The position numbers and the translations under genes are program-made. Shown one piece after another: positions 28,393-57,393 of a stretch of 64,000 nucleotides of DNA. Positions within the stretch are counted from its first letter, which is position 1, and every line of letters starts with the position of its first letter. Source of the DNA: Candidatus Omnitrophota bacterium (GTDB taxonomy: Bacteria; Omnitrophota; Gorgyraeia; S143-82); the NCBI GenBank assembly GCA_015494465.1, contig WGBD01000008.1:3485-67484 (forward strand), given 5' to 3'. Below the pieces are notes generated by a model. That model was not told the DNA's origin. It saw nothing but the letters and a program-made list of their open reading frames with translations, and made no database searches.

Positions 28393-28688
28393 ACCTTCCT
28401 CCCTTGCAATTGAACCTTCCCTATAAGACTGCGTTCACTATTAAACTTCAAAAAGAAGGCCTTATCAACCCAAAAATCCCGGTTTGTAACCCCCAAGCAG
28501 AACCAATATTGGGCCTGCAAGGGCCCTATGCCAGAGAGATACCGTCCTATCATTAACTGTGCAAATCAGATTTGCGTTGCTGAGGGGAAATGCGTATTGT
28601 ATGATTTTCTAGTGCGGTATGACGCTGGGCTCGTGTCTCCAATCCCAACTAGACAAACTTAAATCCGTTTACTTGGAGAAAAGAAGGC

Positions 28689-29408
28689 ATGAAGTACATA
28701 TTCTTGAGAGACGACGATGTATTCTCATTCCAAGAGCCATCCTTCAGGTGGTTTTGGAAAATAGCGGAATCTATGGATATACCTGTAATGTACGCGGTTA
28801 TCCCCGGCAAACTGGACGAGGACACCGCAAAAGTATTACTAGATAAAAAACGAGCCTCCCCGTCTAAGATCGACATAGCACAGCACGGTTACATGCACAT
28901 AAATCACAACCCGGATATATACCCAAAGTATGAGTTCGGTCCTTCGAGAAGCAAGGGTGCACAAAAAAGAGACCTTCTCGAAGGAATGAAGATAATGGAG
29001 CTTTCCTTTGGGCCTGACCTACCCCGTATATTCGTTCCTCCTTTCGACGGTTTTGACATAGTGACCTTAGAAGTGGCAGAAGAGCTGGGGATAGAGATCT
29101 TTTCTGCGGACAGTTACATCATAGGACAGAAATACAAATTTTTAAATCTACCCTACAGATTCGCAATAAACGACTACGCAGAAGATGGGACCCCGATCCC
29201 GGTTAGTTTTGAAACCATGTTGAAGAGGTACAGGCTCTACTACCTCTCAAATTACAAAGTAATTGGCATACTCCTCCACCACCAAGCATATCAAGATCCA
29301 TCTTCAAGAAGGGATCTGGCCTTATTTCTGAAATTCCTCGTGAAGGAAGAAACCAAAGGAGCAATCAAACTAATAACCGCCTCAAAGCTTCTCCAGTATA
29401 AGAGATAG
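28689..29408 (+). CDS. DUF2334 / polysaccharide-deacetylase-like family protein
   Basis: N-terminal FLRDDDV and QHGYMH motifs are characteristic of the DUF2334 deacetylase-like fold. Confidence 0.55.
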   Translation: MKYIFLRDDDVFSFQEPSFRWFWKIAESMDIPVMYAVIPGKLDEDTAKVLLDKKRASPSKIDIAQHGYMHINHNPDIYPKYEFGPSRSKGAQKRDLLEGMKIMELSFGPDLPRIFVPPFDGFDIVTLEVAEELGIEIFSADSYIIGQKYKFLNLPYRFAINDYAEDGTPIPVSFETMLKRYRLYYLSNYKVIGILLHHQAYQDPSSRRDLALFLKFLVKEETKGAIKLITASKLLQYKR

Positions 29409-30533
29409 CATCTTCTCGGCTCCCTTTAACTCAATCGAAGGGAATTCCCTCTGGTCTAAGTTCTTTAACTTTTCCATAAATCCTATTATCCTTGGCAGAA
29501 GTTCCTCCTCCTTGACAAAGATGAACACATTTGGGGCGGTATGGGTCAAAAACTCTGCCCGCACCCTCTGTTCGTTCAGACCAGGATAGGCATCGGTCCC
29601 CTCGAAAGGAACGAATACAGCAGGTACTCGATGCTTTATAATCTTCACAGCAGTGTTGTAAGAGGAAGTACAAATCGCCACTTTGGCCTTCCCTAAAAGC
29701 CCATCTATATCCCGAGCGTAAGGTATTACAACCACATTATCCGGGGCTTTTATATCACCCACATCCATCCTACTCGCAGGCCCTAACACAACTACAAACT
29801 TCTCTTGAGGCAACACCCTTGCTACCCCTATCGTGGCCCTCACGAGGCGGTCCATCACTATGCCCGATCCTCTCAACAGTAGGACATAGTCTTGACACGC
29901 AATATCCGTACGCCCACCTTGCTTGAAGGGCAAAGGCTCAGCGTCGATGTACCCAGTTAGGGAATACTTGCCGACGAACTCCTTTAGGAGAGTTCCCAAC
30001 AGAGGATTCTTCCTCATCCAAAACCTCAATTCCTCCTTCGAACAATGGAAAAACACATGGTCGACTACATCCATCCCCTTTTTTACTCTCTCCAGGTGCC
30101 TGTAATTCAGGATGGGGTAGCCCACACTGGAAAACACCTTAATCCCTCTTTTCCTAAGGGCCTTTGCCAATGCCATCATCTCTTTGAATATCTGGAATCT
30201 GCCGAAAGGGAAATACTCGAGGATGACGAAAGCATCGTCTTTAACGCGATCGAACAACCACCTGACCCTGCTGAGATCCACCAACTCCTTAGAGTAGGAA
30301 GGATCAAAAAAGGTCCTTTCTCCAAACACGGGGTAAGGCGAGAATAAAATAGGAAGATTAAGTGCGGTATAATCCAGGTACTCCTGAGCGGGAGATAAAC
30401 TAACTATCCTCAACCCTGCCCTGCTCGCGATAGCAAAAACCCTGGATGTATGGCCAAGACAGCCATAATGAGAAAAGACTATACTACCTTGACGGGCGCC
30501 TTTCAGATTGAGACGACTTTTATTCTCCCACAT
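29382..30533 (-). CDS. Putative GT-B fold glycosyltransferase, paralog 1
   Basis: A glycine/His N-terminal motif (GCLGHTSR) like GT1/GT28 donor-binding N-termini and a Rossmann-like C-terminal half. It is a paralog of 34597..35763, sharing the EYFP(F/L)G motif. Confidence 0.5.
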   Translation of the reverse strand: MWENKSRLNLKGARQGSIVFSHYGCLGHTSRVFAIASRAGLRIVSLSPAQEYLDYTALNLPILFSPYPVFGERTFFDPSYSKELVDLSRVRWLFDRVKDDAFVILEYFPFGRFQIFKEMMALAKALRKRGIKVFSSVGYPILNYRHLERVKKGMDVVDHVFFHCSKEELRFWMRKNPLLGTLLKEFVGKYSLTGYIDAEPLPFKQGGRTDIACQDYVLLLRGSGIVMDRLVRATIGVARVLPQEKFVVVLGPASRMDVGDIKAPDNVVVIPYARDIDGLLGKAKVAICTSSYNTAVKIIKHRVPAVFVPFEGTDAYPGLNEQRVRAEFLTHTAPNVFIFVKEEELLPRIIGFMEKLKNLDQREFPSIELKGAEKMLSLILEKL

Positions 30534-30536
30534 AGA

Positions 30537-31481
30537 TCATACAAAATTCCACCACTGCAAATAGCCGTGATAGGCCAGACACTTGGGGCAATCTCCCGCG
30601 TTAGCCCTTTTTATGACCGAAAAAAGTTTGTCTTCGTCTATTCCCGACACTATGTTTCCAACCGGCTCCATGTACAAACAAGGGAAGATGCTCCCATCGA
30701 CGGTGACGAAGAAACTGCAGGCGGGAGTGCGACAGGTAGTTATGAAGTCCATGTTCTCAGATTCCAGATAGCTGATAATGGGCTCCAGATAGGTAGAATA
30801 GATGAGATAATCAGATTCGCCGTACAAGTCCCTGTATTCCTTAGCTATTTCTTTCAAACTAGATCTGATCAGCCCAAAATCAGGCAGGAGTTCCTTTATG
30901 TCTATTGAATAGTTCCTGTGGTAATAGGAAGGCACCCTCTCAACCACCTTGAAGTACACTGGAATTTTCAGAGCTTTTCCAAGTTGCCAAACCCTGTGTA
31001 TCTGATGTTGATTAATTGAGGTGATCACCATCTTTAGGCTTAATGACATCCCCGGAGCCACCCTCCTCACAAACCTCACATTGTCTATCAGACTGCGGAA
31101 GGCACCATTATAACCGCGTTGCACATCGTGATACTTGCCTATACCATCTAGACTAAAGGTCATTTCCAGCCACCTAGCGTAGGGAGCAAACTTCACGACT
31201 AACTCTCGTATCTCCGGGCAAGTCCCATTCGAGGATATGTGTATACCCGTTATCTCATTCCTGAGCGCCCTTTTGAGGCAGTATTTGAGCAACCTGTAAA
31301 GATCTTCGTAAAGGAAAGGTTCACCACCCGTTATGGAAATGGAAAAGTTTTCGTACTTATCGAGAAAGGAGGTTATTCGACCGTAATCGATAGATGCAGG
31401 ACTCCTCCACAAAGAACACATCTTACACCTTAAATTGCATCTACTAGTTACCTCAAGCGTTATGTTAGAAACAGATCCCAT
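30537..31481 (-). CDS. Radical SAM enzyme with a C-terminal Cys cluster (SPASM/twitch-like)
   Basis: N-terminal CNLRCKMC (CxxxCxxC), the glycine motif SITGGEPF, and a C-terminal CRTPAC...C...CPKC cluster. Confidence 0.8.
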   Translation of the reverse strand: MGSVSNITLEVTSRCNLRCKMCSLWRSPASIDYGRITSFLDKYENFSISITGGEPFLYEDLYRLLKYCLKRALRNEITGIHISSNGTCPEIRELVVKFAPYARWLEMTFSLDGIGKYHDVQRGYNGAFRSLIDNVRFVRRVAPGMSLSLKMVITSINQHQIHRVWQLGKALKIPVYFKVVERVPSYYHRNYSIDIKELLPDFGLIRSSLKEIAKEYRDLYGESDYLIYSTYLEPIISYLESENMDFITTCRTPACSFFVTVDGSIFPCLYMEPVGNIVSGIDEDKLFSVIKRANAGDCPKCLAYHGYLQWWNFV

Positions 31482-31488
31482 ATCTCGA

Positions 31489-32439
31489 TTACACCAGAAA
31501 TTCCTCTAAATCCAGATCGACTGCGGTTATGAACTCCACATCTGAAATCCTCTCGGGAAAACTCATAACCCTGGAAGCCTTGCTTACGATAAAACCGTTA
31601 GCTATAAAAAGATCGACATAGGGTGCAGAGACGAGTACGCTAATCTTGTCAACTTTGGGATAGAATATCCCAATACCATCCAACAAGACAGACAGAGTCC
31701 AATCCGTTATCTCACCTGCAAAGTGCCAATCGATCAAATAAGCCGTGTCGTGGGAGTAACAGTCCTGCCTGATCAACAGACTCCCTATGTGTTTGTGGTC
31801 ATAAAAAACCTTAACGGCCCTATAGAAATCCCTAACTGGTTCCCTGTTAATCCTCTTCTCCCAAATACCACGCGACTTGTAAAAACGCCTAGGAGCAAAT
31901 GCGAGAAGCGAATCTACATATTCGCCAATGCCTATCTCCGTAACATCTATACGCCGATCCCGGGATCCTCTCGAGATCTTACCGTCTAATACATATACCC
32001 TACTGCACTCCTTCCAATTCATCTTGAAGTAAATCCTTTCCATATTATAATTGGGAACCGTGAGAAAGACATACTTCTTTGAAAGCAAATCCAAGTCCCT
32101 TCTGTATTCTAATAATCCTTTGGTTGCCATAACCTTGGCATTGTCCTTCTCTCCTTTGGTCCGAATGAAGTCAACACACCAGGCCAACTTTTTCTGCCCA
32201 CAAAGTTCGTTGGACAACAGAACAGCGCCAAATACTACGCACCCTGCTTCATCCCAATACAGATAAGTCTTGGTCTTATCCCCAAGGGAATACTTCCACT
32301 TGGCAACATCGACGAACTCTTTAGAACAGATAAAGTTTCGGGAAATAACTTCTTCTTGCTCCTGTAGATAAATTAGGCGGGACCAGTCGAGATCAAGGTT
32401 CTCCCTAAAACCTATAGAGGCCTCTTCACTCCAAAACAT
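31489..32439 (-). CDS. Hypothetical protein (316 aa) within the tailoring cluster
   Basis: Long ORF with island-like composition, tightly spaced between the rSAM and aminotransferase genes. No recognised motif. Confidence 0.5.
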   Translation of the reverse strand: MFWSEEASIGFRENLDLDWSRLIYLQEQEEVISRNFICSKEFVDVAKWKYSLGDKTKTYLYWDEAGCVVFGAVLLSNELCGQKKLAWCVDFIRTKGEKDNAKVMATKGLLEYRRDLDLLSKKYVFLTVPNYNMERIYFKMNWKECSRVYVLDGKISRGSRDRRIDVTEIGIGEYVDSLLAFAPRRFYKSRGIWEKRINREPVRDFYRAVKVFYDHKHIGSLLIRQDCYSHDTAYLIDWHFAGEITDWTLSVLLDGIGIFYPKVDKISVLVSAPYVDLFIANGFIVSKASRVMSFPERISDVEFITAVDLDLEEFLV

Positions 32440-32448
32440 AGCCCCTTT

Positions 32449-33555
32449 CTAATCCCCTTCCACGGAAGCTAGGGTTTCCACGACATACTTTATCTCATCT
32501 TCTTTGATAAAAGAAAAGAGCGGTAGATGGACGATCCTTTTACGATAGACTTCGGAATGTTCGCACTTGCCAAGAGAATACCTTGCAAATACCTTCCTCT
32601 CGTGTAAGGGCACATAGGGCCTGAGGGCATATACCCCCTTCGCTTCCAGTTTCGACAAAACATCATCGGAATCCGACACGAATACCGGGAAATTCTGCAA
32701 CACGACGAATTCCTCTTCGCGTTCTTTTAAGTAATCGATGTGGTAGTCGTCGCACAACTTCTCATACAGTCTTTTAGCGCTCCTACGGGATTTTATTATG
32801 TGGTTTATGTACCTGAACTTCACATTAATCGATACATAGTCCATCAAGTACATGGATGCAAATCTCTTGTTAAGACCTGTCAATCCGTAGTCGTCTCTCC
32901 AGATCTGGGTATAATCTCTTATCCTATTAAACCTCTCGTCGTCAAAGCAGATCATCCCACCTCCACCCCCGCAAGAAGAAATGGGCTTATAGTAGGAAAA
33001 GGAAAAACACGCGATGTCGAAAAAGGAACCCAAGTAGCGGTCTTTATACTTAGAACTCTCGGCCTGGCACACATCTTCTATAATAGCTACACCATACTTC
33101 TCCTTTATTCGCCTTATGCCTTCAATATCTGCCGGGAAGCCGAACATGTGAGGCACGATAATGGCCTTTATAGTTTCCCCATACTCATTGACTGCCTTTT
33201 CTATTTCTTGGAGGGATATAGAAAATCTCTCCGGCTCTACATCGACGATCACGGGCTCCGCTCCGGAATACAACACTGCGTAGCCTACTGCGGAATATGT
33301 GACGGAAGGCACGATGACCCTATCTCCCTTTCCTATACCTAGGGCGTAAAGGGACAGTTGAAGGGCATCGGTCCCGGAGTTTACCGCCACTGCAAACTTC
33401 CTTCCGATGTAACCCGCAAACCTTGCTTCGAACTCTTTTAACAATGTTTCTATGTCCGATAAACCATTCACACATGACAAAACTCGAGATAATTCCTCAG
33501 CATACTTAGATGCCAGAGACTTGTCCACCCTCATGGATTCATACCTAACCTTCAT
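32449..33555 (-). CDS. DegT/DnrJ/EryC1/StrS-family PLP-dependent sugar aminotransferase. The start is revised to the ATG at 33555, which overlaps the upstream rSAM stop as ATGA.
   Basis: AVAVNSGTDALQLSL, the spacing of Asp/Lys, and overall length match DegT-family aminotransferases. The 29-codon extension in the ORF track overlaps the upstream gene. Confidence 0.8.
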   Translation of the reverse strand: MKVRYESMRVDKSLASKYAEELSRVLSCVNGLSDIETLLKEFEARFAGYIGRKFAVAVNSGTDALQLSLYALGIGKGDRVIVPSVTYSAVGYAVLYSGAEPVIVDVEPERFSISLQEIEKAVNEYGETIKAIIVPHMFGFPADIEGIRRIKEKYGVAIIEDVCQAESSKYKDRYLGSFFDIACFSFSYYKPISSCGGGGGMICFDDERFNRIRDYTQIWRDDYGLTGLNKRFASMYLMDYVSINVKFRYINHIIKSRRSAKRLYEKLCDDYHIDYLKEREEEFVVLQNFPVFVSDSDDVLSKLEAKGVYALRPYVPLHERKVFARYSLGKCEHSEVYRKRIVHLPLFSFIKEDEIKYVVETLASVEGD

Positions 33556-34607
33556 ATATTCCCCTTCCGGAGCTCTAACCCGGGGATCTTCCTCTCGATC
33601 TTCACGATCTGCTCGGTCAGATGCCGATAGGCCTGAAACCAATTATTGTGATCTCGATCCATATACCTTATAGCCAACCCAGCATTGAAATTACTAAACT
33701 CCCTGTAGGACGCAGTGGGATTCTTCTTGAAAAAGTCCAATAACTTCCTTAAGTAGTCTATCACCACCCGTTGATTGATGACAATTCCATCGTCTTTTAT
33801 GTGGAAGAGAGTAAATTTATCCCGAATATTCTCTGGGAACGACAACAAGGTCCAATTGGGGAGGACTTTCCCATTAGGCTGAATCACCAGATCCATCCCA
33901 TATCCCATAGAAAGAGAATACATTTTTCCTATGAAGCCCTCTCCTCTGATACGCCTATATCTAGTCTTAAGCTCCCATGTCAACAAACGCTTGTAGCGTT
34001 CCAGAAATTTTCGCGCGCTCTCACTATCCCACGGAGCCAAAAAGGCCGGGTGCACTTCTATGTCGTAAAAGCCCAACCTTATCAATTCGAAAAAATTATC
34101 TTCCATAAAATCAACCTCATCTGGATGCACGGTCATCGTGGGATTTATGTCAACACCGCGATTGATGAGCTCGGCGACATTCCTTACATATACATCATAG
34201 GTAGCACCCGTTATCCCTAGCCGATGTCTTTGGTTTGAAGGCAATTCCCCGTCCAAGCCTGGCTCCACGGATATCCTGTTCTCCAAAACAAACCTAATGT
34301 GATCCTCCTGCCAATAGTACATGTTACTCTGAATGCTACAATCCCTATACGGAAATAACCCAAACACTCTATTGAATATGTACTTAACCTTATCCCAGAC
34401 GATTAAGGGCTCTCCTCCGGAGACAACGACATTGTGCCTTTTCATTCTCGGTAGTGCGGACAACAAAGTATCTATCTGGGCATAACTTAATTCCGTGGAA
34501 TTGGTCCTATACCTGAAGAAACAATAATCGCAATTCAGATTGCATTTATCCGTGACGAAAATCCAGAGATTTTTAAGAGGGACTTCTGCAAGTATCTTAG
34601 TTACCAT
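33552..34607 (-). CDS. Radical SAM enzyme (no obvious SPASM cluster)
   Basis: N-terminal FVTDKCNLNCDYCFF (CxxxCxxC) and VVSGGEPL; 351 aa. Confidence 0.8.
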   Translation of the reverse strand: MVTKILAEVPLKNLWIFVTDKCNLNCDYCFFRYRTNSTELSYAQIDTLLSALPRMKRHNVVVSGGEPLIVWDKVKYIFNRVFGLFPYRDCSIQSNMYYWQEDHIRFVLENRISVEPGLDGELPSNQRHRLGITGATYDVYVRNVAELINRGVDINPTMTVHPDEVDFMEDNFFELIRLGFYDIEVHPAFLAPWDSESARKFLERYKRLLTWELKTRYRRIRGEGFIGKMYSLSMGYGMDLVIQPNGKVLPNWTLLSFPENIRDKFTLFHIKDDGIVINQRVVIDYLRKLLDFFKKNPTASYREFSNFNAGLAIRYMDRDHNNWFQAYRHLTEQIVKIERKIPGLELRKGNI

Positions 34608-35763
34608 CAGTTACATCATTTAGTATTTCCCTTAAAAACACGGACTCTCCCTTAAAGTCCTCTTCTCTCAAGCAATGCGTTGGGGTTTCATCGCCCAACT
34701 CCCTTATCCATCCCGCTACCGTATTAACGGGCATCCTAGGACCTTCTATGACTCGAGCCGGAATAAACCTGCCTACGACAGAGGCCCTTGCTAATTGTTC
34801 CACGGCATCTAACGGGTATATAACGGTAGGCTTACGCCAATAAATCAATTTGGTGATAGTGTTATAGCCCGCCATGTTAATACTTAGTCTACACTTGCTT
34901 AACAAAAAGTTAAACTTCTCAAGCGGAAGAGATTCGTAAATCGTAACATTATCCGGTGCAACTTTGCGGACCTCCTCTACGAGATCATCCCTAGAAGAAG
35001 GCCCCAACACGAGAACGAACCTATCGTTTGGCATCCTCTTCGCCAAGACGATGGCCAAGGATATGATCCTATCGTTTATCACACCACCTCCCCGTGAAAC
35101 CATAACAAAATCCTTAGGGATGTCGAGAGGGGAAGTCTTTGTGTCTATGACGAAACCGGTGTACACGATCCTATCGCGATACCTATCCAGAATAGCCAAG
35201 AGGTCCTGCACCCCTCTAGAGATCTCGGCCATTTCCCGTAGATAGAGCCTTAAAAAGTCCTCCGTACTATGTATGAAAATTTTATCGTAGTACCTGCCTA
35301 TTATAGCATCTGCGCCTCTTACATGGCTCACATATCCACAAGAGCAATATATCCTCCTCACCTTAGGGCGTATCGCCTCCAGCACCGTGTAAAGCTCCTC
35401 CGTCCAAAAGGCGTCACCCAAGGGGAAGTATTCGGTAATGAAGACATCCGGAGAAAAGCTCTCTATCTCGGAGAGGATAACCGATATCCTCTCGCTCATG
35501 GCCTTCCTACCCCAAGGGCTGGACAAAACTTTAGAATGAAGGGGATCAAACCTGTCCACAAACATACCTTTTTTTGCGTACGAATGCGGTAATAAGATCA
35601 CTTTCCCCAATCTGCCAAAATCCAACAACCGCTGTCTCTTACCTCCTTGAAGGATCAGCAATTCGACATCCAAATTGGCCTTTAGGTAGGATAGTAAATT
35701 ATAGGTTCTCAGACTGTGGCCGAAGCTATTATAATGATTGTAATACAAACATATCTTAATCAT
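34597..35763 (-). CDS. Putative GT-B fold glycosyltransferase, paralog 2
   Basis: NSFGHSLRTYNLLS and EYFPLGDAF parallel GCLGHTSRVFAIAS and EYFPFGRFQ in 29382..30533. Confidence 0.5.
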   Translation of the reverse strand: MIKICLYYNHYNSFGHSLRTYNLLSYLKANLDVELLILQGGKRQRLLDFGRLGKVILLPHSYAKKGMFVDRFDPLHSKVLSSPWGRKAMSERISVILSEIESFSPDVFITEYFPLGDAFWTEELYTVLEAIRPKVRRIYCSCGYVSHVRGADAIIGRYYDKIFIHSTEDFLRLYLREMAEISRGVQDLLAILDRYRDRIVYTGFVIDTKTSPLDIPKDFVMVSRGGGVINDRIISLAIVLAKRMPNDRFVLVLGPSSRDDLVEEVRKVAPDNVTIYESLPLEKFNFLLSKCRLSINMAGYNTITKLIYWRKPTVIYPLDAVEQLARASVVGRFIPARVIEGPRMPVNTVAGWIRELGDETPTHCLREEDFKGESVFLREILNDVTDGN

Positions 35764-35780
35764 ACAGACCGATCGACATC

Positions 35781-36620
35781 ATGAATATTTACATTATTCT
35801 AAACCTCGCGATTGCCTTGTTCTTCTCTAGAACCGACTTATTATACAAAAGGATACCAAACATTCCCATTGCTATCGTCATTTTAATGGGCACGGGTCTC
35901 AATGCATATCTATTTCCAAACCGCATTCACATGATGATCCTAAATACGCTCCTTGCGACAGCCATAGCCTTCATCCTATTCTGGTTCGACATCTGGAAAG
36001 CAGGTGACGGTAAACTCCTTATTGCATTTACGGCTTTGACACCACCTTTTTTTATCGCCAACATAATTCCCCCACCTATTATCCTGACTTCCTTAGCTTT
36101 TGTACTAGGGCTAGGGGTATCCCTTCCGCCGATGGCCTTCTCTCTTTGGAAGACAGTGAGGAAAGATCCTCCAAAGATAATGGAAATAGCCTCTGATCTG
36201 GCGGAAAAGATAGCGATAGCCATTAGCACGATATGGATCATCCGGATATTTCTAAGGAACACCGTGAAGAACAACATGATCATGTACCTCCTAGCCTATG
36301 CTATAATCTCTAGCCTAAAAACGAATTGGCTTTCTAGACAAAATAAAACCTTGGTCCGAGGGATAACGGTGCTGGGATTGACAGGTCTGCTCGTGGCCTC
36401 CCGCTACCTTAGATACTTCGATGTGAAGTCCTATCTATTGATTACCACGGTCTACATCTCCATCTATTCCGCAATCGACTTGCTTTTAAAACACATTCCT
36501 GAGGAAGCAGCCAAAAAGCGCATACCTCTGGCCCCATTGATGGCCTGTGCTCAGATGCTAATAATATCAGCGCCTCCTCAGACAATGCAGTACATCTTTC
36601 GGATGCTACGGATAATATGA
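35781..36620 (+). CDS. A24-family aspartic peptidase (prepilin/preflagellin peptidase-like, TadV/CpaA type)
   Basis: Polytopic membrane protein with both catalytic Asp contexts: TDLLYKRIPN (first Asp plus the RIPN motif) and WKAGDGKLLIAF (the GxGDxKL motif). Confidence 0.7.
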   Translation: MNIYIILNLAIALFFSRTDLLYKRIPNIPIAIVILMGTGLNAYLFPNRIHMMILNTLLATAIAFILFWFDIWKAGDGKLLIAFTALTPPFFIANIIPPPIILTSLAFVLGLGVSLPPMAFSLWKTVRKDPPKIMEIASDLAEKIAIAISTIWIIRIFLRNTVKNNMIMYLLAYAIISSLKTNWLSRQNKTLVRGITVLGLTGLLVASRYLRYFDVKSYLLITTVYISIYSAIDLLLKHIPEEAAKKRIPLAPLMACAQMLIISAPPQTMQYIFRMLRII

Positions 36621-37819
36621 GAAGATCCCCGCCAATAACATCCATTAAGATAGACAAGATATCTCCCTATCAGTTAAAGAAACTCAAGAACATAATCCAG
36701 AATAGGCACCCCTTTCCACTACTGATATACAATGTCCCTTACTGTCTATTCCCAAAAGTGCCCCACTGGATAGTGGCTGAATACGACGACGGAGACAAAA
36801 CAGAACAGTGTCAACGATGCGCCTGGAACTTACTCTGTCCTGGCTTTCCTTTTGACAGAGTAAGATCTACTACGCCAACCCCCATTGAGGACAAACCAAA
36901 TGAGGTGGTCATAGAGATATGTGGAAAGTGCCAACTATCGTGTGAATTCTGTAGATTTAGCAACAGCTCAACTGTAATAATAGAAACCTCCCAGATCTTT
37001 TCCATAATAGACGAGGCCCATATGATGGGGGTATCAACCATAAGGTTGACCGGGGGAGAACCCCTGCTCCACCCGGAAATCGACATAATCGTAGGCTACA
37101 TCGAAGAAAAGGGTATGAATTGCATCGTAAATACGAACGGATTATCGAGAAGGATCGTTGAACTTGCCAAACGGCATAATAACTTACAAAATGTATTGGT
37201 TTCTATACAATATAAAGACCTGTTCAACAAAAAACTCATCATCCAAAAGTTAAACAATCTAGCCCTACTAAAGGCCCATACAGCTATCGTAAGGATCGGA
37301 ACCGTAATACCACAACGAGTGAACTATCGGCAATTCGTTTTTCGGATGGCAAAGGTCATATACAAATTGCCTGTATTCCTGTGGGAGTTGTACAGGCCAT
37401 TCTCTCCTGAATGTAGACCGATAACGATCGATAGGCAAGGCTGGGAATCCATAACTAAAGGAATAACCGAACTCAAAAAGAGAGGTTTTCCTCACAAACT
37501 GGGGATAGCCAACAGCGTTCCGTTCTGTTACATGGACGAGCTGTCCAAATTATTGCTGGGCAACTTTACCGACGATGGACATACTCGAATAGTCTTCTCA
37601 GCACAGTACGAAGAATTTATCCCGTCCTACTTCTCCAACTTACTACTTGGCAAGTCCCTGATGAAAGCGTGGGACAACCCTGTCCTTCGAGCAAGGAGAA
37701 ACCTGGGGTGTTTGCCCAAACAATGCGACAGCTGTACATTAAGAAATATCTGCAGAGGAGGGTCTTACTCTATGTGGCCCCAGGAAGACCCAATGATACC
37801 TAAAAATACCTCTTTTTAA
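36617..37819 (+). CDS. Radical SAM / SPASM-like enzyme with an N-terminal Cys-containing extension
   Basis: ICGKCQLSCEFC (CxxxCxxC) about 100 aa in, LTGGEPL, and a C-terminal CDSCTLRNICRGG cluster. Its start overlaps the A24 peptidase stop (ATGA). Confidence 0.8.
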   Translation: MRRSPPITSIKIDKISPYQLKKLKNIIQNRHPFPLLIYNVPYCLFPKVPHWIVAEYDDGDKTEQCQRCAWNLLCPGFPFDRVRSTTPTPIEDKPNEVVIEICGKCQLSCEFCRFSNSSTVIIETSQIFSIIDEAHMMGVSTIRLTGGEPLLHPEIDIIVGYIEEKGMNCIVNTNGLSRRIVELAKRHNNLQNVLVSIQYKDLFNKKLIIQKLNNLALLKAHTAIVRIGTVIPQRVNYRQFVFRMAKVIYKLPVFLWELYRPFSPECRPITIDRQGWESITKGITELKKRGFPHKLGIANSVPFCYMDELSKLLLGNFTDDGHTRIVFSAQYEEFIPSYFSNLLLGKSLMKAWDNPVLRARRNLGCLPKQCDSCTLRNICRGGSYSMWPQEDPMIPKNTSF

Positions 37820-38489
37820 ACTCGAGATAATCTCTATACCCAAAGGTGGTTACGGCGGAATAAAAGTAGCTTAATCCAGAAAGTTCCTTGGCCTTGCCTC
37901 TTCCCGATAACACCTTGCCCAACAATCGAAAGGCCTTTTCCATGTATTCCTTGGCCTTACAACCGCAGTAATCCAAGGTCAAGAATTGGAGGATGTACAC
38001 CGCAAGCAAGTCCCTCTCTGTATACGGCAATAACCCTTCTACCCCACTTTTGTAATATTGATACAAGTAGAAAAACAATTTCAGATCTTCCTCTGTAGCT
38101 ACTCGATCTTCCATAAGCTCGTCTTCGATGAGGTAAGAAAAGGACATAAATTTTTCCAAGTCGTTCCCGGTCAAAGCATCGCACAAGGACCTAAATTCGC
38201 GATTAGTGAGACCACCGCAGGCATCAGAAGAGACCGCCTGGATAAAACTAACCATATCAGAAGGAATCTCGTCATAATAGGCAAGGATAAAACCTGCCTT
38301 ACCCAACGCCAAGGCCCGGGGAGCCAGCATCACCTCAACATAGTCAACGACATCTTCCTTTCCAGCATAAGGGACGACTGAATCCTTTACATATGCCAAT
38401 AACTCGTCCAATCTAAGAGGGATATCCGCAGAGAAGGCGTAACCACCAATACCTAGGGTACAGAGCAAGATAACAAGCCACTTCATCAT
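37800..38489 (-). CDS. Secreted hypothetical protein (signal peptide MMKWLVILLCTLGIGGYAFSA). The start is revised to the ATG at 38489, behind a strong AGGGGAAGGGG Shine-Dalgarno sequence.
   Basis: Signal peptide followed by 200 aa with no recognised motif. It lies 10 nt downstream of precursor peptide 2. Confidence 0.55.
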   Translation of the reverse strand: MMKWLVILLCTLGIGGYAFSADIPLRLDELLAYVKDSVVPYAGKEDVVDYVEVMLAPRALALGKAGFILAYYDEIPSDMVSFIQAVSSDACGGLTNREFRSLCDALTGNDLEKFMSFSYLIEDELMEDRVATEEDLKLFFYLYQYYKSGVEGLLPYTERDLLAVYILQFLTLDYCGCKAKEYMEKAFRLLGKVLSGRGKAKELSGLSYFYSAVTTFGYRDYLEFKKRYF

Positions 38490-38499
38490 CCCCTTCCCC

Positions 38500-38835
38500 T
38501 TAGTAACAATGGGCATTGTGCGTGGTCAACCTGTTCTCATTGTGGTGAGATACCTTACAAGAGGCCTGCGTCGGCAACTCGTTCACATGAGACAAGTGAT
38601 AATTACCGTTTATGTGACGCGGGTGCTCTTTGGTTATAAGGCATCCGCTCTTTCCTAGATGCTCCGGGACGGTTCCATTGAAATGGGAAGTGTGACTACA
38701 AGAAGCATACCCTAGCTCGGCGATAGCTGACAAAAACCCCGAACACAAAATCCCGGCCTTTACGATCTCGTCCCGCCTCACAAAACCGGATTCGTCCGCT
38801 AAGAAGTCGTACAACTTACGAGTTATCCTGTTCAT
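38500..38835 (-). CDS. Precursor-like peptide 2 (111 aa): Flp-prepilin-like leader MNRITRKLYDFLADESG plus a His/Ser/Cys/Asn-rich C-terminal region ending ...NAHCY
   Basis: A perfect AGGAGG Shine-Dalgarno 3 nt upstream. It is a paralog of the upstream peptide, sharing DFLxDESGFVxRDxxVxxGI. The C-terminal half (SCSHTSHFNGT...HPRHINGNYHLSHVNE...SCKVSHHNENRLTTHNAHCY) is low-complexity and metal-ligand-rich. Confidence 0.6.
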   Translation of the reverse strand: MNRITRKLYDFLADESGFVRRDEIVKAGILCSGFLSAIAELGYASCSHTSHFNGTVPEHLGKSGCLITKEHPRHINGNYHLSHVNELPTQASCKVSHHNENRLTTHNAHCY

Positions 38836-38844
38836 ACCCCTCCT

Positions 38845-39090
38845 TCAGTAAGTACAGTACGAACTATGGGTAACATTCTTGTTCACATGATGCCAACTAC
38901 ATCCAGCCATTCCACTGGTGTGAACCGAACCATGGCTGGAGGTGTGGTTACAATGAGCTGAGGCCTCCAGGGTAGAAACCAATGACACCGCGGAAAGGAT
39001 GGCCATACCTTTTATTCCCGACCTAACCAGCGAATCCCGGGAAACAAAACCAGATTCGTCCATCAAAAAATCGCCTATCTTCTTTATCAC
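38845..39090 (-). CDS. Precursor-like peptide 1 (81 aa, GTG start): leader (M)IKKIGDFLMDESG plus core ...AHCNHTSSHGSVHTSGMAGCSWHHVNKNVTHSSYCTY containing His-Xaa-Ser triplets
   Basis: The GTG start at 39090 overlaps the TGA stop of the rSAM/SPASM gene (GTGA), with an AAGGA upstream. The 134-aa version in the ORF track would overlap the rSAM gene. The leader aligns with peptide 2. The core has HTS/HGS/HTS/HSS repeats and 4 Cys. Confidence 0.6.
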   Translation of the reverse strand: MIKKIGDFLMDESGFVSRDSLVRSGIKGMAILSAVSLVSTLEASAHCNHTSSHGSVHTSGMAGCSWHHVNKNVTHSSYCTY

Positions 39091-40454
39091 CCTATCCTTT
39101 GCATTCCCCACGCCTGAAGCTCCTCCTCGTACTCTTCGTAAAGACAAAAGAACAAGCGTATAACCGCGTTGTGGAATTCCAACATCGAAGAATGGCCAAG
39201 TATAGAGCCCGTCTCCTGGTAGGTGTACACAGGGCAGGTCCCCGTCCACGCTATAAAGGGATTACTTGGATCCACGATGTCCAGACAACTCGCAGTGGCC
39301 ATCCCTATAACGGTATCGTGGGCCAAGACATCTTTGTAGTCGTCTTTTAAGACATTACCGATGCGGAACATATCCCTATCTTCGAGCATCCTAGCCTCGT
39401 CGCAGGTGTAAACATCTCCGTTAGGCATGTAAGCAAGGACATTCCTCCCCGCACCACACGGACAACACATGTCCACATAACTGGGATCGGAATAATACAA
39501 TATCTTTTGGGCGACATTGGACATCATCCTCTCTTTAATTGTAATTCCCGACCTGTTCAGATTCAACATATATCTCACAGCTTTCTCGTAGACGCTCATA
39601 AATTCATCCAGAGAATAACCTATTTTCTGCCATGTCTCCGGATCCACATTGATCTTACTAAGGGGTCTAAAGGCTATAGTCTTGATGCCCATATCCACAT
39701 AAGAGTCTATTATCTCCTTCCAATACTTAAGGCTTTCCCTGCTTATGGTCGTGATCAACGAAACAGAAGCCGACCGTCTTTGCAATAGATCAATTGCCTT
39801 CCGCACTACATCGTGGGTAGGCCTTCCGTCGACATAACGGCGATTGAAGTCGTGGACCTGACTTGGCCCATCGTAAGACACGCAAATCCCAACGCCTTTT
39901 TCTTTCAAGAAATCCACCTTCTCTTCGTCAAGCAGAGAACCATTGGTCACCAAAGATATCTCCAGATCCTTCGTTCCGTTATTCCACTCCCTTGCCTTTT
40001 CAACCATAAACTTTAGGGTCTCCCAATTCAAAAGAGGCTCGCCTCCTTGAAATTCCAAGGAGACGCTGTACCTTCTACTATCAAACAAAAACTTCAAGAT
40101 GTGGGCAGCCACCTCCAAACCCATTCTCCTTTTTTCATTACTCCTAGCCTGGCAATACACACAATCGAAATTACATTCCGTGGTAAGGACCGCGATGTGA
40201 AGACCAACATCCGAAAAGAGATGGCTATTCAACGACCTGAAACGGCCCGTTATGTCGTCCAAATTAGCCTCTGAAATGACGATCCCTCGTCTTTCCAATT
40301 TCTCTAGCAGAAAGGGATCTAACTGATCGATGTCTCCCAATCGAAACTGAGAGATGTCATCTAAGAGGGTCCATCCCCCAAACCTATTAGAGATCAAGTA
40401 CTTACCCGTCTTCTCAAAGTATTGCACATAAAAAGGCAGAAATACCCGTTTCAT
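39087..40454 (-). CDS. Radical SAM/SPASM-domain peptide-maturase-like enzyme with an N-terminal RRE-like (PqqD-like) extension
   Basis: About 90 aa precede TECNFDCVYCQ (CxxxCxxC). The glycine motif is EFQGGEPLL. The C-terminal Cys-rich region (MCCPCGAGRN...YTCDEA...ASCLD...CPVYTY) is SPASM-like. The gene is translationally coupled to the precursor peptide. Confidence 0.8.
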   Translation of the reverse strand: MKRVFLPFYVQYFEKTGKYLISNRFGGWTLLDDISQFRLGDIDQLDPFLLEKLERRGIVISEANLDDITGRFRSLNSHLFSDVGLHIAVLTTECNFDCVYCQARSNEKRRMGLEVAAHILKFLFDSRRYSVSLEFQGGEPLLNWETLKFMVEKAREWNNGTKDLEISLVTNGSLLDEEKVDFLKEKGVGICVSYDGPSQVHDFNRRYVDGRPTHDVVRKAIDLLQRRSASVSLITTISRESLKYWKEIIDSYVDMGIKTIAFRPLSKINVDPETWQKIGYSLDEFMSVYEKAVRYMLNLNRSGITIKERMMSNVAQKILYYSDPSYVDMCCPCGAGRNVLAYMPNGDVYTCDEARMLEDRDMFRIGNVLKDDYKDVLAHDTVIGMATASCLDIVDPSNPFIAWTGTCPVYTYQETGSILGHSSMLEFHNAVIRLFFCLYEEYEEELQAWGMQRIG

Positions 40455-40666
40455 CGGTTAAAATCCCTACTGACAATTAACAACTCCATCAAGGCCTCTT
40501 CTATATCGTCGCCTTGAAACTGCACTTCCCACCTATTGCCATACGGCTTTATCGAAACCAGATTGTACCTGTTCAACACCTCGGAAGGCATCTTATCCAA
40601 GGGATAAACGCTCCTGGATAGAAACACGCGAGCATCTCCGTTTAGCAAGGGCAGGGTATCACTCAT
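40451..40666 (-). CDS. Small protein (71 aa) coupled (ATGA) to the rSAM/SPASM gene; a possible stand-alone peptide-binding (PqqD/RRE-like) or accessory protein
   Basis: ORF in tight operon context (overlaps on both sides). No motif was confidently recognised. Confidence 0.4.
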   Translation of the reverse strand: MSDTLPLLNGDARVFLSRSVYPLDKMPSEVLNRYNLVSIKPYGNRWEVQFQGDDIEEALMELLIVSRDFNR

Positions 40667-41033
40667 CCTCTGCTTCTAACTCTTTTATGAGCTCTTCTAT
40701 CTCCTTTTCTTCCGCTTCCTGAATAAATTTCGGAGACGAAGAGAACAGCGCCCGCTGTATGATCAACTTAGCTACTTCATTATTCTCCTTCAGCGAGGCA
40801 AAGTATCTCTCGTAATTTATAAGCTGGTTACCAAATTCCAGCTCGATGTCATCTATAGAAGCACCTCCCTTTGACTTCACATAAGCAATGTAATACTTTT
40901 CATCTTCGTCTATCACGATGTATGCCTTGCCCAAGAATGTATACGCTGCGTTGTAGATGGCCTGCAGGGAATAGAGGTTCTTATTGATCTTTATGGCCTT
41001 CCACCCCCCTTTATAAACAGCCATTCCTACCAC
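40659..41033 (-). CDS. Small acidic-tailed protein (124 aa), possibly an HxsD-like accessory protein
   Basis: Operon position directly upstream of the rSAM cassette. An internal ...QLINYERYFASLKE... segment loosely resembles the LLNDYxLRE signature recalled for HxsD. The C-terminal poly-Glu tail is EEKEIEELIKELEAEDE. Confidence 0.4.
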   Translation of the reverse strand: MVGMAVYKGGWKAIKINKNLYSLQAIYNAAYTFLGKAYIVIDEDEKYYIAYVKSKGGASIDDIELEFGNQLINYERYFASLKENNEVAKLIIQRALFSSSPKFIQEAEEKEIEELIKELEAEDE

Positions 41034-41549
41034 CTACCCTCCACAATAATATATCCTTCCATTGACCCTTAGGTCGTGATCAACCGTGAGGTTGTTCTCC
41101 ACTCGCAGATTCCCTTTAACTCTATCCTGAATCGTCAATGTATTCACCTGCAAATGACCTGCTACCGTACCATTACCTGTGACCTCCAAGTTACCGGTAA
41201 CTGTGACCTTGCCATTCGAAGGATCAATAGTTACCGCAGCCCTAGCAGGGTCACCTATGACGACCTTGCCCGTTGCTGTTATGTACAAAGAGCCATCGGT
41301 TGGATCGAAGGTTACCCTGGCTACATTTGAAGTGATATCCTTAAAAAATATCTCTTTCTGCAAAACAATAACCCCGTCCTCAAGGGCTTCACCCATGAGA
41401 CTGCTCCCCACCGAGAGCTTATAAGTCCTCAACTCTTCGTACTCGCCGTAAGGGGACGGATAATAGACGGAAATGGTTTTATGGCTCTCTGACCACCCAA
41501 AGACAGGGATCACCAAGGATAAAAGCAGCAACAAAAATGTATTCTTCAT
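41034..41549 (-). CDS. Secreted protein (171 aa) with a conserved VYYPSPYGEYEELR N-terminal module and bactofilin-like beta-helix repeats
   Basis: The signal peptide is MKNTFLLLLLSLVIPVFGW. The module is shared with 55831..57393. Repeats (GNLEVTGNGTVAGHLQVNTLTIQDRVKGNLRVENNLTVDHDLRVNG) resemble bactofilin/beta-helix repeats. It is the first gene of the rSAM operon. Confidence 0.55.
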   Translation of the reverse strand: MKNTFLLLLLSLVIPVFGWSESHKTISVYYPSPYGEYEELRTYKLSVGSSLMGEALEDGVIVLQKEIFFKDITSNVARVTFDPTDGSLYITATGKVVIGDPARAAVTIDPSNGKVTVTGNLEVTGNGTVAGHLQVNTLTIQDRVKGNLRVENNLTVDHDLRVNGRIYYCGG

Positions 41550-41717
41550 GGTTTATCCTAACTTCTTCCAACCACATCAAATATTAACACGCAAGCGTCA
41601 ATCAGGTCAAGGACTGCACGACATTGAGACCAGCGATTCAGCACACACCATTGCAAAAAATTGGCCACTGGGCAAGATTAGAAGGATCGCTCGCAGAGAC
41701 GAAACCCGTTCTCGCGC

Positions 41718-55830: not shown

Positions 55831-57393
55831 TTACTTAAGCCGACAACATCTCATTTTCATCTTTTTGGTCCCGCATCCCCCAGTGCAGTCAAATCCTACA
55901 GCTACATATCCTCCGGGACAATTGCCCCACTTGGAGTCAGGCGTATACACACAATCGTTGTAATCTATGTGCACCGGATTCAGCATCTTACTTGCCCAAT
56001 CGGGGTGTACCCCCGGCTTTTTGGGATTAGCTATATAGATGTCCTTTACTACCACATAGCCATTCACATCCAGCCTAGTCTTCTCTCCACCAACCGTCCT
56101 GGTCCCTGAGGCCCCTAAACTACCTATCGCCATTCCCCCGTCAGCAAAGACCTGCACTCCTGACGATCCATTTCCAGCAGATAAGACCCTACCGTTGTGG
56201 TTGCCTTGCACGGTCAAAAGGGCTCGAGGAGTGGCGCTGCCACCCACCACTACCGCACCACTTGGTCCCACCCTCAGGTGATACGGAGTTCCAACCACAT
56301 CCAACAACTGACCGCTCCCTTTGCTGGTAACGGTAAGACTTGCGTTCAACGAGCCAAAGGACACCGTACCGATTACGACTCTACCACCTGAATCGATACC
56401 CAGTGCAGGTACCCCTCGAGGTGAAAGGATAATGTTCTCTCCGCTCCCTCCGGAGATGGAGCCAAACTCAGCGGCAGAAAGGCCTTGATTGTAACCGAGA
56501 TAGCCTATCCCGTTCATGCCGGGATCCAACCAATACAATGCCGATCTGCTGTTGCCCACTCCGGCTATGTAAAAGACCGCCCTGTCTCCGTATCCACTAG
56601 GGTCGTACATGTCTGGCTGCGGGTGGAGAGGATCCAATACCATCTGACTAGCGTACACCTGCAACGGAACGGGGCTCATCAGCTGATGGTCTACGACGCC
56701 TATCTGTAATGGTTTTTGGGAGTATATGGAATTCTTTTTCCCTCCCGAAGTCTGTTCCGCAACCCAGATCCCCACCCGGTTGTCTCCACTGCCTGCCCAG
56801 ATCCCTCCCTTCTGGCTCCCATCCGTACCAAGCCCCACCAGATAGTTCCCAGCAGAGTCACCGATAACCAGCCCGGATATATTGCCACCTCTACAGACGA
56901 ATTCCGGCTGAAGGCCAAAGTGCCCTATACCTAGCTCCAACTCCGGATGCTGCCCGTCTCCCTCCTTTCTAACATACACACTCACATCCTGAAAATCCCC
57001 GGAAAGAGTAGAAACCGGACCTATAGTCAATACCCCACCATCGGTGTAGGTCAGGGCATCGTTGCCTGCGTTTATCATCGCTTCAGGCCCGGCAACTACC
57101 CGCAACTTCGCATTCCCTGCACCGCTAATCGTGGGCACTGCATCCGTACCGACACCATCGTACTCGCCAATTACCACCGCCCGCTTTACATAGGCCACGC
57201 CTTCGTGTGCATATACCGCATTGGCATCTATGTAATCCGGGACATTTCTGTCCCCGACCACCAAAGAAACCGCCCGCAATTCTACATACTCTCCATAGGG
57301 CGAAGGATAGTAGACCGACACCTTTGATCGCGCCCAGCCCAAGGTAAACACGCCAAACACCAGCCCTACTAATGCTAGAAAACACTTCTTCAT
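55831..57393 (-). CDS. Secreted 520-aa protein with the N-terminal VYYPSPYGEYVELR module and a Cys-rich C-terminus
   Basis: The signal peptide is MKKCFLALVGLVFGVFTLGWA. The module is shared with 41034..41549. Gly/Thr/Val-rich beta-rich repeats follow, and the protein ends CTGGCGTKKMKMRCCRLK. Confidence 0.55.
   Translation of the reverse strand: MKKCFLALVGLVFGVFTLGWARSKVSVYYPSPYGEYVELRAVSLVVGDRNVPDYIDANAVYAHEGVAYVKRAVVIGEYDGVGTDAVPTISGAGNAKLRVVAGPEAMINAGNDALTYTDGGVLTIGPVSTLSGDFQDVSVYVRKEGDGQHPELELGIGHFGLQPEFVCRGGNISGLVIGDSAGNYLVGLGTDGSQKGGIWAGSGDNRVGIWVAEQTSGGKKNSIYSQKPLQIGVVDHQLMSPVPLQVYASQMVLDPLHPQPDMYDPSGYGDRAVFYIAGVGNSRSALYWLDPGMNGIGYLGYNQGLSAAEFGSISGGSGENIILSPRGVPALGIDSGGRVVIGTVSFGSLNASLTVTSKGSGQLLDVVGTPYHLRVGPSGAVVVGGSATPRALLTVQGNHNGRVLSAGNGSSGVQVFADGGMAIGSLGASGTRTVGGEKTRLDVNGYVVVKDIYIANPKKPGVHPDWASKMLNPVHIDYNDCVYTPDSKWGNCPGGYVAVGFDCTGGCGTKKMKMRCCRLK

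Follow-up and report, generated by a model that had tools for sequence, protein, structure and literature searches.

A low-GC block beside dapA in an Omnitrophota genome: a putative HxsC-less relative of the His-Xaa-Ser peptide systems, probably acquired long ago

Introduction

What does a block of about 13 kb, much poorer in guanine plus cytosine (GC) than everything around it, do between dapA and uvrA in an Omnitrophota genome, and how did it come to be there? The question arises from 64,000 nucleotides of contig WGBD01000008.1 (assembly GCA_015494465.1, Candidatus Omnitrophota bacterium), hereafter the window, to which all positions refer. Relatives of its DapA place the host among the Candidatus Omnitrophota. 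Apart from the block, the window is housekeeping in content: DnaK, DnaJ, GrpE, SecA, RuvA, UvrA, DapA, CarAB, PtsI, MetK, AroA, fumarase and others. A first-pass annotation had seen in the interval 28393-41717 an accessory island of assorted non-housekeeping genes inserted between dapA and uvrA. We find that the compositional block is real and that its products are of the kinds listed then; instead of a miscellany, they make up one conserved cluster of the His-Xaa-Ser (HXS) radical-S-adenosylmethionine (radical-SAM) type. When origin and content are considered jointly, the explanation we lean towards, with moderate confidence, is the old transfer of an expanded HXS relative devoid of HxsC.

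HXS was functionally defined only in 2026. [quoted passage not shown] HxsB, HxsC and HxsD, of which HxsC binds HxsD, mature HxsA by N-terminal processing and by a +8 Da change in a SHRSS motif; mature HxsA is periplasmic, and bears a peptidoglycan-binding domain as well as five basic HxS repeats, and 99.7% of the HxsA proteins come from Pseudomonadota (PMC13128918). The curated models are NCBIfam TIGR03976-03979, among them HxsC (TIGR03977, cutoff 268 bits), and NF038309 for HxsA3. The island would extend HXS-like systems to the Omnitrophota, in a strongly remodelled, HxsC-less form accompanied by glycosylation genes and missed by the thresholds of curated annotation.

A sharp step in base composition

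How real is the step? Over 1-kb segments GC stays at 0.434-0.474 from 29 to 41 kb and at 0.50-0.605 in the rest of the window; the segments outside average 0.559 (standard deviation, SD, 0.020; n=50), and the highest one inside lies 4.2 SD lower. A two-breakpoint likelihood fit gives 0.450 inside and 0.559 outside, with a log-likelihood gain of 250, and places the borders at 28385 and 41680, close to the limits proposed at first. The flanks, then put at about 60% GC, measure about 56%, and the block of about 13 kb holds 16 genes where 17 open reading frames (ORFs) had been announced. The step is also found in GC at third codon positions (GC3), which lies at 0.50-0.59 in each of the 16 genes of the island and at 0.65-0.76 in 33 of the 34 flank genes (the single exception, 55831-57393, has 0.55), and in word usage: the tetranucleotide usage of the island correlates with that of the flanks at 0.854, against 0.933-0.960 for flank chunks of equal size, and its dinucleotide delta* is 41, against 18-24 for flank chunks. 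The composition is anything but uniform along the window.

The left border corresponds to the non-coding spacer that separates the start of dapA from the first gene of the island (28393-28688), where GC starts falling, and the right border to the spacer from the island to the uvrA stop codon (41550-41717), where it is back to host level. The left spacer also holds, on the minus strand at 28526-28511, a GC-rich palindrome, GGGCCCTTGCAGGCCC, which forms a hairpin followed by a T-rich tail (whole element 28492-28526). This hairpin has no match in Rfam; it could be a terminator insulating dapA, or a regulatory element.

One conserved gene cluster

Do genes that share a composition also belong together? 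The same gene set, with the order of its modules shuffled, is found in four compared loci: L081 (assembly GCA_053987035.1), L082/L083, L084 and L094. Looser versions occur in many of 80 metagenome loci: HxsD is present in 63 of them, homologues of the 400-residue radical-SAM enzyme of the island in 31, glycosyltransferases in 21-23, and DegT, DUF2334 or 314-residue radical-SAM homologues in 10-12, all lower bounds, most of the 80 loci being short. Because the same set recurs across relatives and metagenome loci, the island genes are best seen as one functional unit. They are also maintained: in the comparison with the closest relative (L093, described below), the ratio of non-synonymous to synonymous divergence (dN/dS) is 0.04-0.17 in all 13 genes compared, which indicates purifying selection.

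The layout of the island is simple. A first operon, read on the minus strand between 41549 and 37800, encodes in this order a bactofilin-like protein, an HxsD-like protein, a protein of 71 amino acids (aa), an HxsB-like maturase, two precursor peptides and a secreted protein of 238 aa. It is followed by a divergent plus-strand pair, an A24-type peptidase and a radical-SAM enzyme of 400 aa (rSAM400), then by a second minus-strand operon composed of a glycosyltransferase of 388 aa (GT388), rSAM351, a DegT aminotransferase, an orphan of 316 aa, rSAM314 and a second glycosyltransferase; a convergent DUF2334 gene closes the island. The motif CX3CX2C is present in four of the four radical-SAM enzymes, and C-terminal cysteine clusters in the HxsB-like maturase, rSAM314 and rSAM400, not in rSAM351.

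The peptide module and its relation to canonical HXS

The assignment to the HXS type rests first on the maturase. This radical-SAM/SPASM protein (39087-40454, minus strand, 455 aa) scores 315.9 bits with TIGR03978, below the cutoff of 370; that model is nevertheless the best by a wide margin and aligns end to end (residues 6-440 of 455), and the protein has the motif CNFDCVYC and the SPASM cysteines. It is 57-59% identical to its nearest homologues (P0002-P0005), at most 46% identical to more than 100 HxsB proteins of Omnitrophota, and 30% identical, over 91-95% of the length, to the annotated HxsB of an Aeromonas plasmid locus. The HxsD-like protein (40659-41033, minus strand, 124 aa) reaches 47.7 bits with TIGR03976, whose cutoff is 50, and 29.9 bits with NF038315; its orthologues in L081, L082, L084 and L085 are annotated as HxsD (PF27806), and its place upstream of HxsB is conserved. 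Between the two stands the small 71-aa protein (40451-40666, minus strand; 58-78 aa in relatives), which keeps this position in the same four loci and has no family match. The 71-aa gene was considered as a remnant of HxsC and ruled out, since a profile-profile comparison with HxsC-like proteins gave a probability of 0.14%.

The putative substrates come directly after HxsB. Precursor A1 (38845-39111, minus strand, 88 aa; dN/dS 0.038) begins with a GTG codon preceded by GAGGAGGAG, and has a His/Ser/Thr/Cys-rich core ending in CTY. Precursor A2 (38500-38835, minus strand, 111 aa; dN/dS 0.085) shares its leader, i.e. a basic N-terminus, DESG|FV and a hydrophobic helix, and continues with a 66-aa core rich in His, Asn, Thr, Ser and Cys that ends in HCY. 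The cores of A1 and A2 contain 7 and 11 His and 3 and 4 Cys respectively, with 0-2 Arg, and each peptide has six scattered H-x-[STN] motifs and no peptidoglycan-binding domain. For both, HxsA3 is the best-scoring model, at 24.6 bits for A1 and 18.5 bits for A2, below its cutoff of 65 bits. The leader design is common to more than 25 loci: a K/R-rich N-terminus, the motif [DE][DE][ST]-G-F-[VI]-[ST]-[KR]-[DE] and a moderately hydrophobic helix that often ends in Ala-x-Ala; the cores of these precursors, of 35-65 aa, again abound in His, Ser, Thr, Asn and Cys, contain H-x-[STN] motifs and terminate in C(x)Y or SY.

The G|F motif recalls class III signal peptides. The basic leader, the G|F and the acidic residue at +5 are present in the precursors, but the fit stops there, positions +2 to +10 being polar and the hydrophobic stretch starting at about +11. 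Domain searches found no pilus assembly ATPase or platform gene in the island.

The likeness with the canonical system is thus one of arrangement and substrate: an accessory, patchy locus where an HxsD-like gene precedes an HxsB-like maturase, followed by substrates rich in His-x-Ser/Thr/Asn that carry an N-terminal segment for export or processing. The differences are as clear. The island has no HxsC, and in the slot between HxsD and HxsB it has the 71-aa gene; its peptides are short (88-111 aa), with scattered HxS, few basic residues, conserved Cys and C(x)Y at the C-terminus; some ten additional conserved genes are present (three radical-SAM enzymes, two glycosyltransferases, DegT, DUF2334, the A24 peptidase, two secreted proteins and the orphan); the host belongs to the Omnitrophota, and all the curated models remain under their cutoffs. 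A displaced HxsC was sought among the radical-SAM enzymes of the island and rejected: the best TIGR03977 score is 48 bits (rSAM314), and the HxsC-like proteins of other Omnitrophota have no counterpart in the island. Compared by BLASTP with the Aeromonas plasmid locus, HxsD is weakly similar, HxsC matches only the generic radical-SAM core of rSAM314 (28% identity), and HxsA matches nothing in the window. Because neither an HxsC nor a canonical HxsA is recognised, we place the island with the HXS type as regards peptide maturation, and outside the canonical family.

Other HxsB loci of Omnitrophota and metagenomes, annotated as 'HxsB' by the prokaryotic genome annotation pipeline PGAP, are a further point of comparison. 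They share with the island HxsD and HxsB, the leader (K/R-rich, then [DE][DE][ST]G|F[VI] and a hydrophobic helix) with its His-rich core, and frequent neighbours homologous to rSAM400, the glycosyltransferases, rSAM351, DegT, DUF2334 and rSAM314. They differ by an HxsB 35-46% identical to that of the island, by an HxsC-like radical-SAM gene that many carry where the island has the 71-aa gene, and by the lack of the A24 peptidase, of the 316-aa orphan and of both secreted proteins (238 and 171 aa). In seven of these loci (L098, L099, L101, L105, L106, L118 and L124) the HxsC-like enzyme, of 306-321 aa, is encoded between HxsD and HxsB, about 0.9-1 kb upstream of HxsB, and shows the motif Cx[NL]DC[RL]FC near residue 33. 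Since the HxsC-like gene lies between the two, many metagenome HxsB loci are ordered D-C-B, not D-B-C-A.

Two secreted proteins complete the first operon. The last gene (37800-38516, minus strand) encodes a protein of 229-238 aa with an N-terminal hydrophobic signal (residues 10-32); it has no family match and is 81% identical in L093 and 28-30% in L081 and L082. The first gene (41034-41549, minus strand, 171 aa) encodes a secreted beta-helix protein, bactofilin-like or DUF7305-like (PF04519, 34 bits), with a signal peptide at residues 1-22. Its N-terminal motif SVYYPSPYGEY is met again in the product of 55831-57393, on the flank side: this minus-strand gene, the only flank gene with an island-like GC3, encodes 520 aa without Pfam match, and in both proteins a signal peptide comes first and (I/V)SVYYPSPYGEY.ELR next, the N-termini being 58% identical over 50 aa. 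The same type of N-terminus heads the clusters of L081, L082, L084 and L085. It may be a sorting or anchoring motif shared by secreted proteins of Omnitrophota, or 55831-57393 may be a second foreign gene.

The sugar and radical-SAM half

Are the remaining genes (28689-37819) part of the same system? They comprise, first, what is needed to imagine a modified sugar. The DUF2334 protein, similar to polysaccharide deacetylases (28689-29408, plus strand, 239 aa), matches PF10096 at 35 bits, above the cutoff; it evolves under a dN/dS of 0.046 and is 90% identical in L093, 60% in L081 and 48-53% in L082 and L084. The DegT/DnrJ/EryC1 aminotransferase, a sugar-type enzyme dependent on pyridoxal phosphate (32449-33555, minus strand; PF01041, 232 bits; dN/dS 0.064), has 368 aa if counted from the start codon common to L093, the ORF extending to 33642; with the NCBIfam models of LegC, PseC and DesI type it stays under every equivalog cutoff. 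Two glycosyltransferases look GT-B-like. One (29382-30533, minus strand; dN/dS 0.17), with weak similarity to Glyco_tran_28_C and to macrolide glycosyltransferases, is an ORF of 383 aa which a public gene call (P0242, 100% identical) shortens to 343 aa with a start at about 30413; its relatives carry PF04101. GT388 (34597-35763, minus strand, 388 aa; dN/dS 0.10) has weak similarity to Glyco_trans_1_3 and MJ1255, and is 50-54% identical in L081, L082 and L094.

Three more radical-SAM enzymes stand among them. The first, rSAM314 (30537-31481, minus strand, 314 aa; PF04055, 47 bits), has CNLRCKMC at residue 15 and five Cys beyond residue 250, a cluster of SPASM/twitch-like aspect, and its sole match in the Protein Data Bank (PDB) is SkfB. 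The second, rSAM351 (33552-34607, minus strand, 351 aa; 61 bits with the same model), bears CNLNCDYC at residue 22 and, with just 4 Cys altogether, has none for an auxiliary cluster; its best PDB match is 5wgg. The third, rSAM400 (36617-37819, plus strand, 400 aa; 52 bits), has an N-terminal extension, CQLSCEFC at residue 105 and six Cys beyond residue 260.

The polytopic membrane aspartyl peptidase of A24 (prepilin-peptidase) type (35781-36620, plus strand, 279 aa) passes the PF01478 cutoff narrowly (26.9 against 26.5 bits); it has about seven hydrophobic segments, and five homologues keep the motifs of its catalytic aspartates, D19...IPN and AGDGK, unchanged. It is limited to this sub-family of clusters. 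The 316-aa protein (31489-32439, minus strand; dN/dS 0.14) is specific to the cluster: no match was found in Pfam, NCBIfam or PDB, profile searches included, and in a set of 1.84 billion representative proteins it has three relatives only, the copies of L093, L081 and L082. A single-sequence structure model of it was unusable (predicted local distance difference test, pLDDT, 33).

Surface-polysaccharide loci typically carry DegT, GT-B glycosyltransferases and a deacetylase-like protein, and the two halves are separate transcription units whose relative placement in the window differs from that in L082 and L084. One may then consider that two unrelated neighbours are at hand, an HXS-like peptide module (37800-41549) and a module for cell-surface glycans (28689-37819). 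We find this improbable. In L081, L082, L084 and L094 the modules, though rearranged, accompany HxsB and HxsD; homologues of rSAM400, the glycosyltransferases, rSAM351, DegT and DUF2334 recur within 10 kb of HxsB in long metagenome loci of GC 0.27-0.53; the island has no flippase, polymerase, initiating transferase or nucleotide-sugar synthase; and the two halves have the same composition.

What the cluster might produce

A scheme of action can be proposed from these contents. The HxsB-like maturase, with HxsD and the 71-aa protein, would recognise the conserved leader and modify the His-rich core; the three other radical-SAM enzymes would probably add cross-links or tailor a sugar. DegT would aminate this sugar and the DUF2334 protein deacetylate it, possibly with the help of one of the radical-SAM enzymes, yielding an amino sugar that the two glycosyltransferases would attach to the peptide. 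The leader would be cut, possibly by the A24-type peptidase at G|F, after the invariant Gly, and the hydrophobic segment would direct export, the product ending in the periplasm or at the cell surface. One step of this scheme has a difficulty: the G|F motif also exists in loci without an A24 peptidase, which weighs against the peptidase as leader processor. As the wider family keeps G|F while the peptidase is confined to this sub-family, its role as general partner of the motif was rejected.

Would such a product defend the cell? By analogy with canonical HXS, a role at the envelope against the entry of phage DNA might be envisaged, a proposal that we regard as tentative. We hold as loosely the more detailed picture, in which the island represents an undescribed HXS branch of ultra-small Omnitrophota: HxsC would be replaced by other enzymes, and His/Cys-rich envelope peptides would be multiply modified by radical-SAM enzymes, glycosylated, and processed in a prepilin-peptidase-like way. 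Several facts speak against this functional proposal. HxsC, essential in E. coli as the partner of HxsD, is missing; the precursors have neither the peptidoglycan-binding domain nor the tandem array of basic HxS that underlies the proposed DNA binding; every curated HXS model is under its cutoff; and PADLOC detects only generic similarity to viperin-type radical-SAM enzymes.

The same facts leave room for another product, equally doubtful in our opinion, for a locus of the same origin: a secreted, glycosylated and cross-linked His/Cys-rich ribosomally synthesised and post-translationally modified peptide (RiPP), binding metal or acting as an antimicrobial. As in RiPP clusters modified by radical-SAM enzymes, two short precursors with a conserved leader and a variable core adjoin a SPASM maturase with an N-terminal extension, and several radical-SAM enzymes of the island are closest to peptide-modifying families or structures (PapB, SCIFF, the CteB-like 5wgg, SkfB). 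His, Cys, Ser, Thr and Asn, abundant in the cores, are typical metal ligands, and with so few basic residues an electrostatic binding to DNA in the manner of HxsA fits poorly. On the other hand, the matches to the known ranthipeptide (PapB), SCIFF, sactipeptide and cyclophane systems are far under the equivalog cutoffs, and such clusters do not usually include glycosylation genes or an A24 peptidase; domain searches found neither an ABC exporter nor genes for immunity or TonB-type uptake; the hydrophobic segment and the Ala-x-Ala behind it point to Sec export and residence in the envelope; and the sole experimentally characterised relative is a defence system (PMC13128918). With its two short precursors and four radical-SAM enzymes, the cluster is a concrete target for expression and mass spectrometry.

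Origin of the island

Does the low GC betray a foreign origin? The most informative relative is scaffold_561 of the ENA assembly ERZ23491094 (L085/L093), assembled independently from another sample. At 84% nucleotide identity it is collinear with all of the island, with the left junction and with 9 kb of flank (dapA-carA-carB-M42-LigT-CinA), and shows the same step (GC 0.450 in the island and 0.557 in the flank, GC3 about 0.52 and 0.73). Owing to this collinearity the left junction is independently confirmed, and the island is older than the split between the two lineages.

The same scaffold makes it very improbable that the block is a chimera of assembly or binning, i.e. a low-GC fragment of another organism mis-joined to this contig, all the more as the sign of the GC skew is unchanged over both borders. 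What can be said for a chimera is that the genome is evidently metagenome-assembled and that the right junction is seen in this assembly only. The contig of L085 ends at the equivalent of 41613, about 100 bp inside the right border, so that the uvrA-side junction rests on the window's own assembly; this break, exactly at the compositional boundary, may reflect strain variation there.

Between the window and L093, synonymous divergence (dS) is 0.53 in the flank and 0.90 in the island, and non-synonymous divergence (dN) 0.025 and 0.090; the island genes thus evolve about 3.6 times faster than their housekeeping neighbours. GC at four-fold sites (GC4) is 0.53 for the island in both genomes and 0.73-0.76 for the flank, and a back-calculation under the flank substitution process gives, for the island at the time of the split, a GC4 of about 0.34-0.39, the value of the L081, L084 and L094 clusters today. 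The first-pass annotation had mentioned an old, ameliorating island as one possibility. It fits the presence of the island at dapA in L093, the equal GC step, the dS of 0.5-0.9 and the back-calculated GC4, with the reserve that two-state modelling of four-fold sites, carried out without outgroup, does not separate parallel amelioration from stationarity.

The low GC is not a property of the family. Cluster and flank have nearly the same GC3 in L090 (0.550/0.552), L082 (0.514/0.516), L081 (0.390/0.394) and L084 (0.355/0.391), and metagenome loci are flat in GC at 0.52-0.53 (L116, L130) or 0.27 (L103). Because cluster GC matches flank GC in these other genomes, the cluster family takes on the composition of its host and has no intrinsic AT-richness. 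The lineage of the window and L093 is the exception here, and of the metagenome loci just one, L142 (1-21362), has a comparable step of its own, which runs over the extended part of the cluster, from about 0.46-0.54 in the first 9 kb to 0.35-0.41 from 13 kb on; this may be a second compositionally foreign copy.

Presence among close relatives is patchy. Proteins 89-92% identical to the DapA of the window exist in several new NCBI assemblies; in a scan of a genome collection with DapA, the closest among the matches listed was 87% identical, in a non-syntenic context. The cluster is at dapA in L093. In L086 (DapA 90%, CarB 85%, GC 0.38) the order is dapF-dapA-carA-carB, with no cluster there; L087 and L088 (DapA 92%) have another downstream context and no cluster in the contig upstream of dapA (up to 1.7 kb). 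L090, which is on one contig with L082 (GCA_054035575.1; DapA 92%, CarB 89%), carries a homologous but divergent cluster that directly adjoins dapA-carAB on the upstream side: its HxsB is just 58% identical, its composition is host-like, the DUF2334-glycosyltransferase pair is at the opposite end with an extra radical-SAM gene beside it, an extra APH and two extra radical-SAM genes are present, and the far border is Lyase_1 and Flavin_Reduct, not uvrA. The block is thus not a constant feature of this position, with host-like codon usage, in all relatives.

From this patchiness and the compositional step together, we infer that the ancestor of the island was rather probably acquired horizontally, from an Omnitrophota-like donor whose GC, about 37-47%, was lower. 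Entry would have preceded the split from the L093 lineage, the island keeping a donor-like composition that has been ameliorated in part; integration would probably have occurred by recombination at or next to the dapA-carAB block, with no site-specific integrase.

What weighs against a transfer must be set beside this. As the first-pass annotation had noticed, there is no trace of mobility: domain searches found no integrase or transposase anywhere in the 64 kb, a search for tRNA and tmRNA found none, and the longest word common to the two borders has 8 nt, as expected by chance (74% of shuffles reach it). An Rfam scan matched no family. No donor above 59% identity appears among 5.8 billion proteins, and the viral and plasmid collections gave only HxsB homologues about 30% identical (those of plasmids annotated hxsB), with no close relative of the island. 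An empty site is lacking too: dapA is beside uvrA in no relative compared, and synteny past dapA-carAB is scrambled, so that an insertion between dapA and uvrA, as first claimed, is not demonstrated. L090 carries its homologous cluster on the same side of dapA; its HxsB identity of 58% could be vertical divergence, given that the island genes evolve about 3.6 times faster. Finally, a GC3 equal in both sister lineages (0.53) fits stationarity as well as parallel amelioration.

Remnants in the window of the flank genes of L086 and L082 (dapF, Lyase_1, Flavin_Reduct and others tested) were sought as well; nothing matched, apart from a rearranged LTD protein 23 kb away.

These points give some weight to a vertical history, which we consider unlikely and which runs as follows: the cluster resided upstream of dapA before the window and L093 separated from L090, and the GC of the host later rose from about 48-51% to 56%, the cluster being exempt from the force that raised it, for example GC-biased gene conversion limited to recombining regions, or selection on codon usage. 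The place of the L090 cluster, directly upstream of dapA-carAB, is what one would expect. Host GC is clearly moving in the clade, since it spans 0.38-0.56 among genomes whose DapA is at least 87% identical. The GC at the three codon positions of the island (0.46/0.36/0.53) is near that of the L082 cluster (0.495/0.355/0.54), equilibrated in a genome of 47% GC, save that GC1 is lower in the island at a similar GC3, a lag that fits an old transfer. Two lineages separated by a dS of 0.5-0.9 show the same GC3 deficit, and a 3.6-fold faster dN could stretch a housekeeping divergence of 8-19% to about 40%.

Yet a mutational shift alone would have moved the island too, as the weakly constrained LigT and CinA do reach a GC3 of 0.65-0.70. 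L090 differs in module order, content and far border; L086 and L087 lack a cluster at dapA; and most cluster genes of the window are as close or closer to L081 than to L082. Moreover L082 and L084 keep HxsB proteins 73% identical with flank genes at 70-79%; this calibration suggests that the 58% between the window and L090 is too low for vertical descent. We therefore retain an old horizontal acquisition as the better account of the origin. Since L090 carries a variant of the cluster there, the dapA side may nonetheless be a place of repeated or ancestral residence, not a fresh point of insertion.

The 20-point deficit in GC3, unchanged over a speciation, may signal a non-recombining accessory locus exempt from GC-biased gene conversion. 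The sister pair with an identical step offers a dated case (dS 0.5-0.9), either for the rate at which foreign DNA ameliorates or for the escape of an accessory locus from a GC-raising force.

Taken by itself, the island is ordinary: an integrase-less, low-GC accessory block. Like other islands without integrase, such as surface-polysaccharide loci or defence hotspots, it shows a sharp step between housekeeping genes, variants at one site (dapA) and neither mobility genes nor repeats. A clean hotspot between two conserved genes is not supported, because the far flank varies (uvrA or Lyase_1).

Further observations on the clade and its loci

In this clade of Omnitrophota, base composition changes with unusual speed. 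Among L086, L087, L001, L090 and L093, whose DapA proteins are 87-92% identical to that of the window (CarB 85-89% where seen), GC spans 38-56%, and the GC3 of dapA and carAB over these relatives takes the values 0.33, 0.61 and 0.72-0.74.

Two large proteins lie near the clusters. In GCA_053987035.1 (L081, 147-6896), a protein of 2249 aa without Pfam match and then a Pel9A-like beta-helix protein are encoded immediately upstream of the cluster. In the window, a minus-strand gene overlapping the uvrA start (44515-48561), of host-like composition, encodes 1348 aa, with a weak, sub-threshold CofD-like match at residues 1008-1088.

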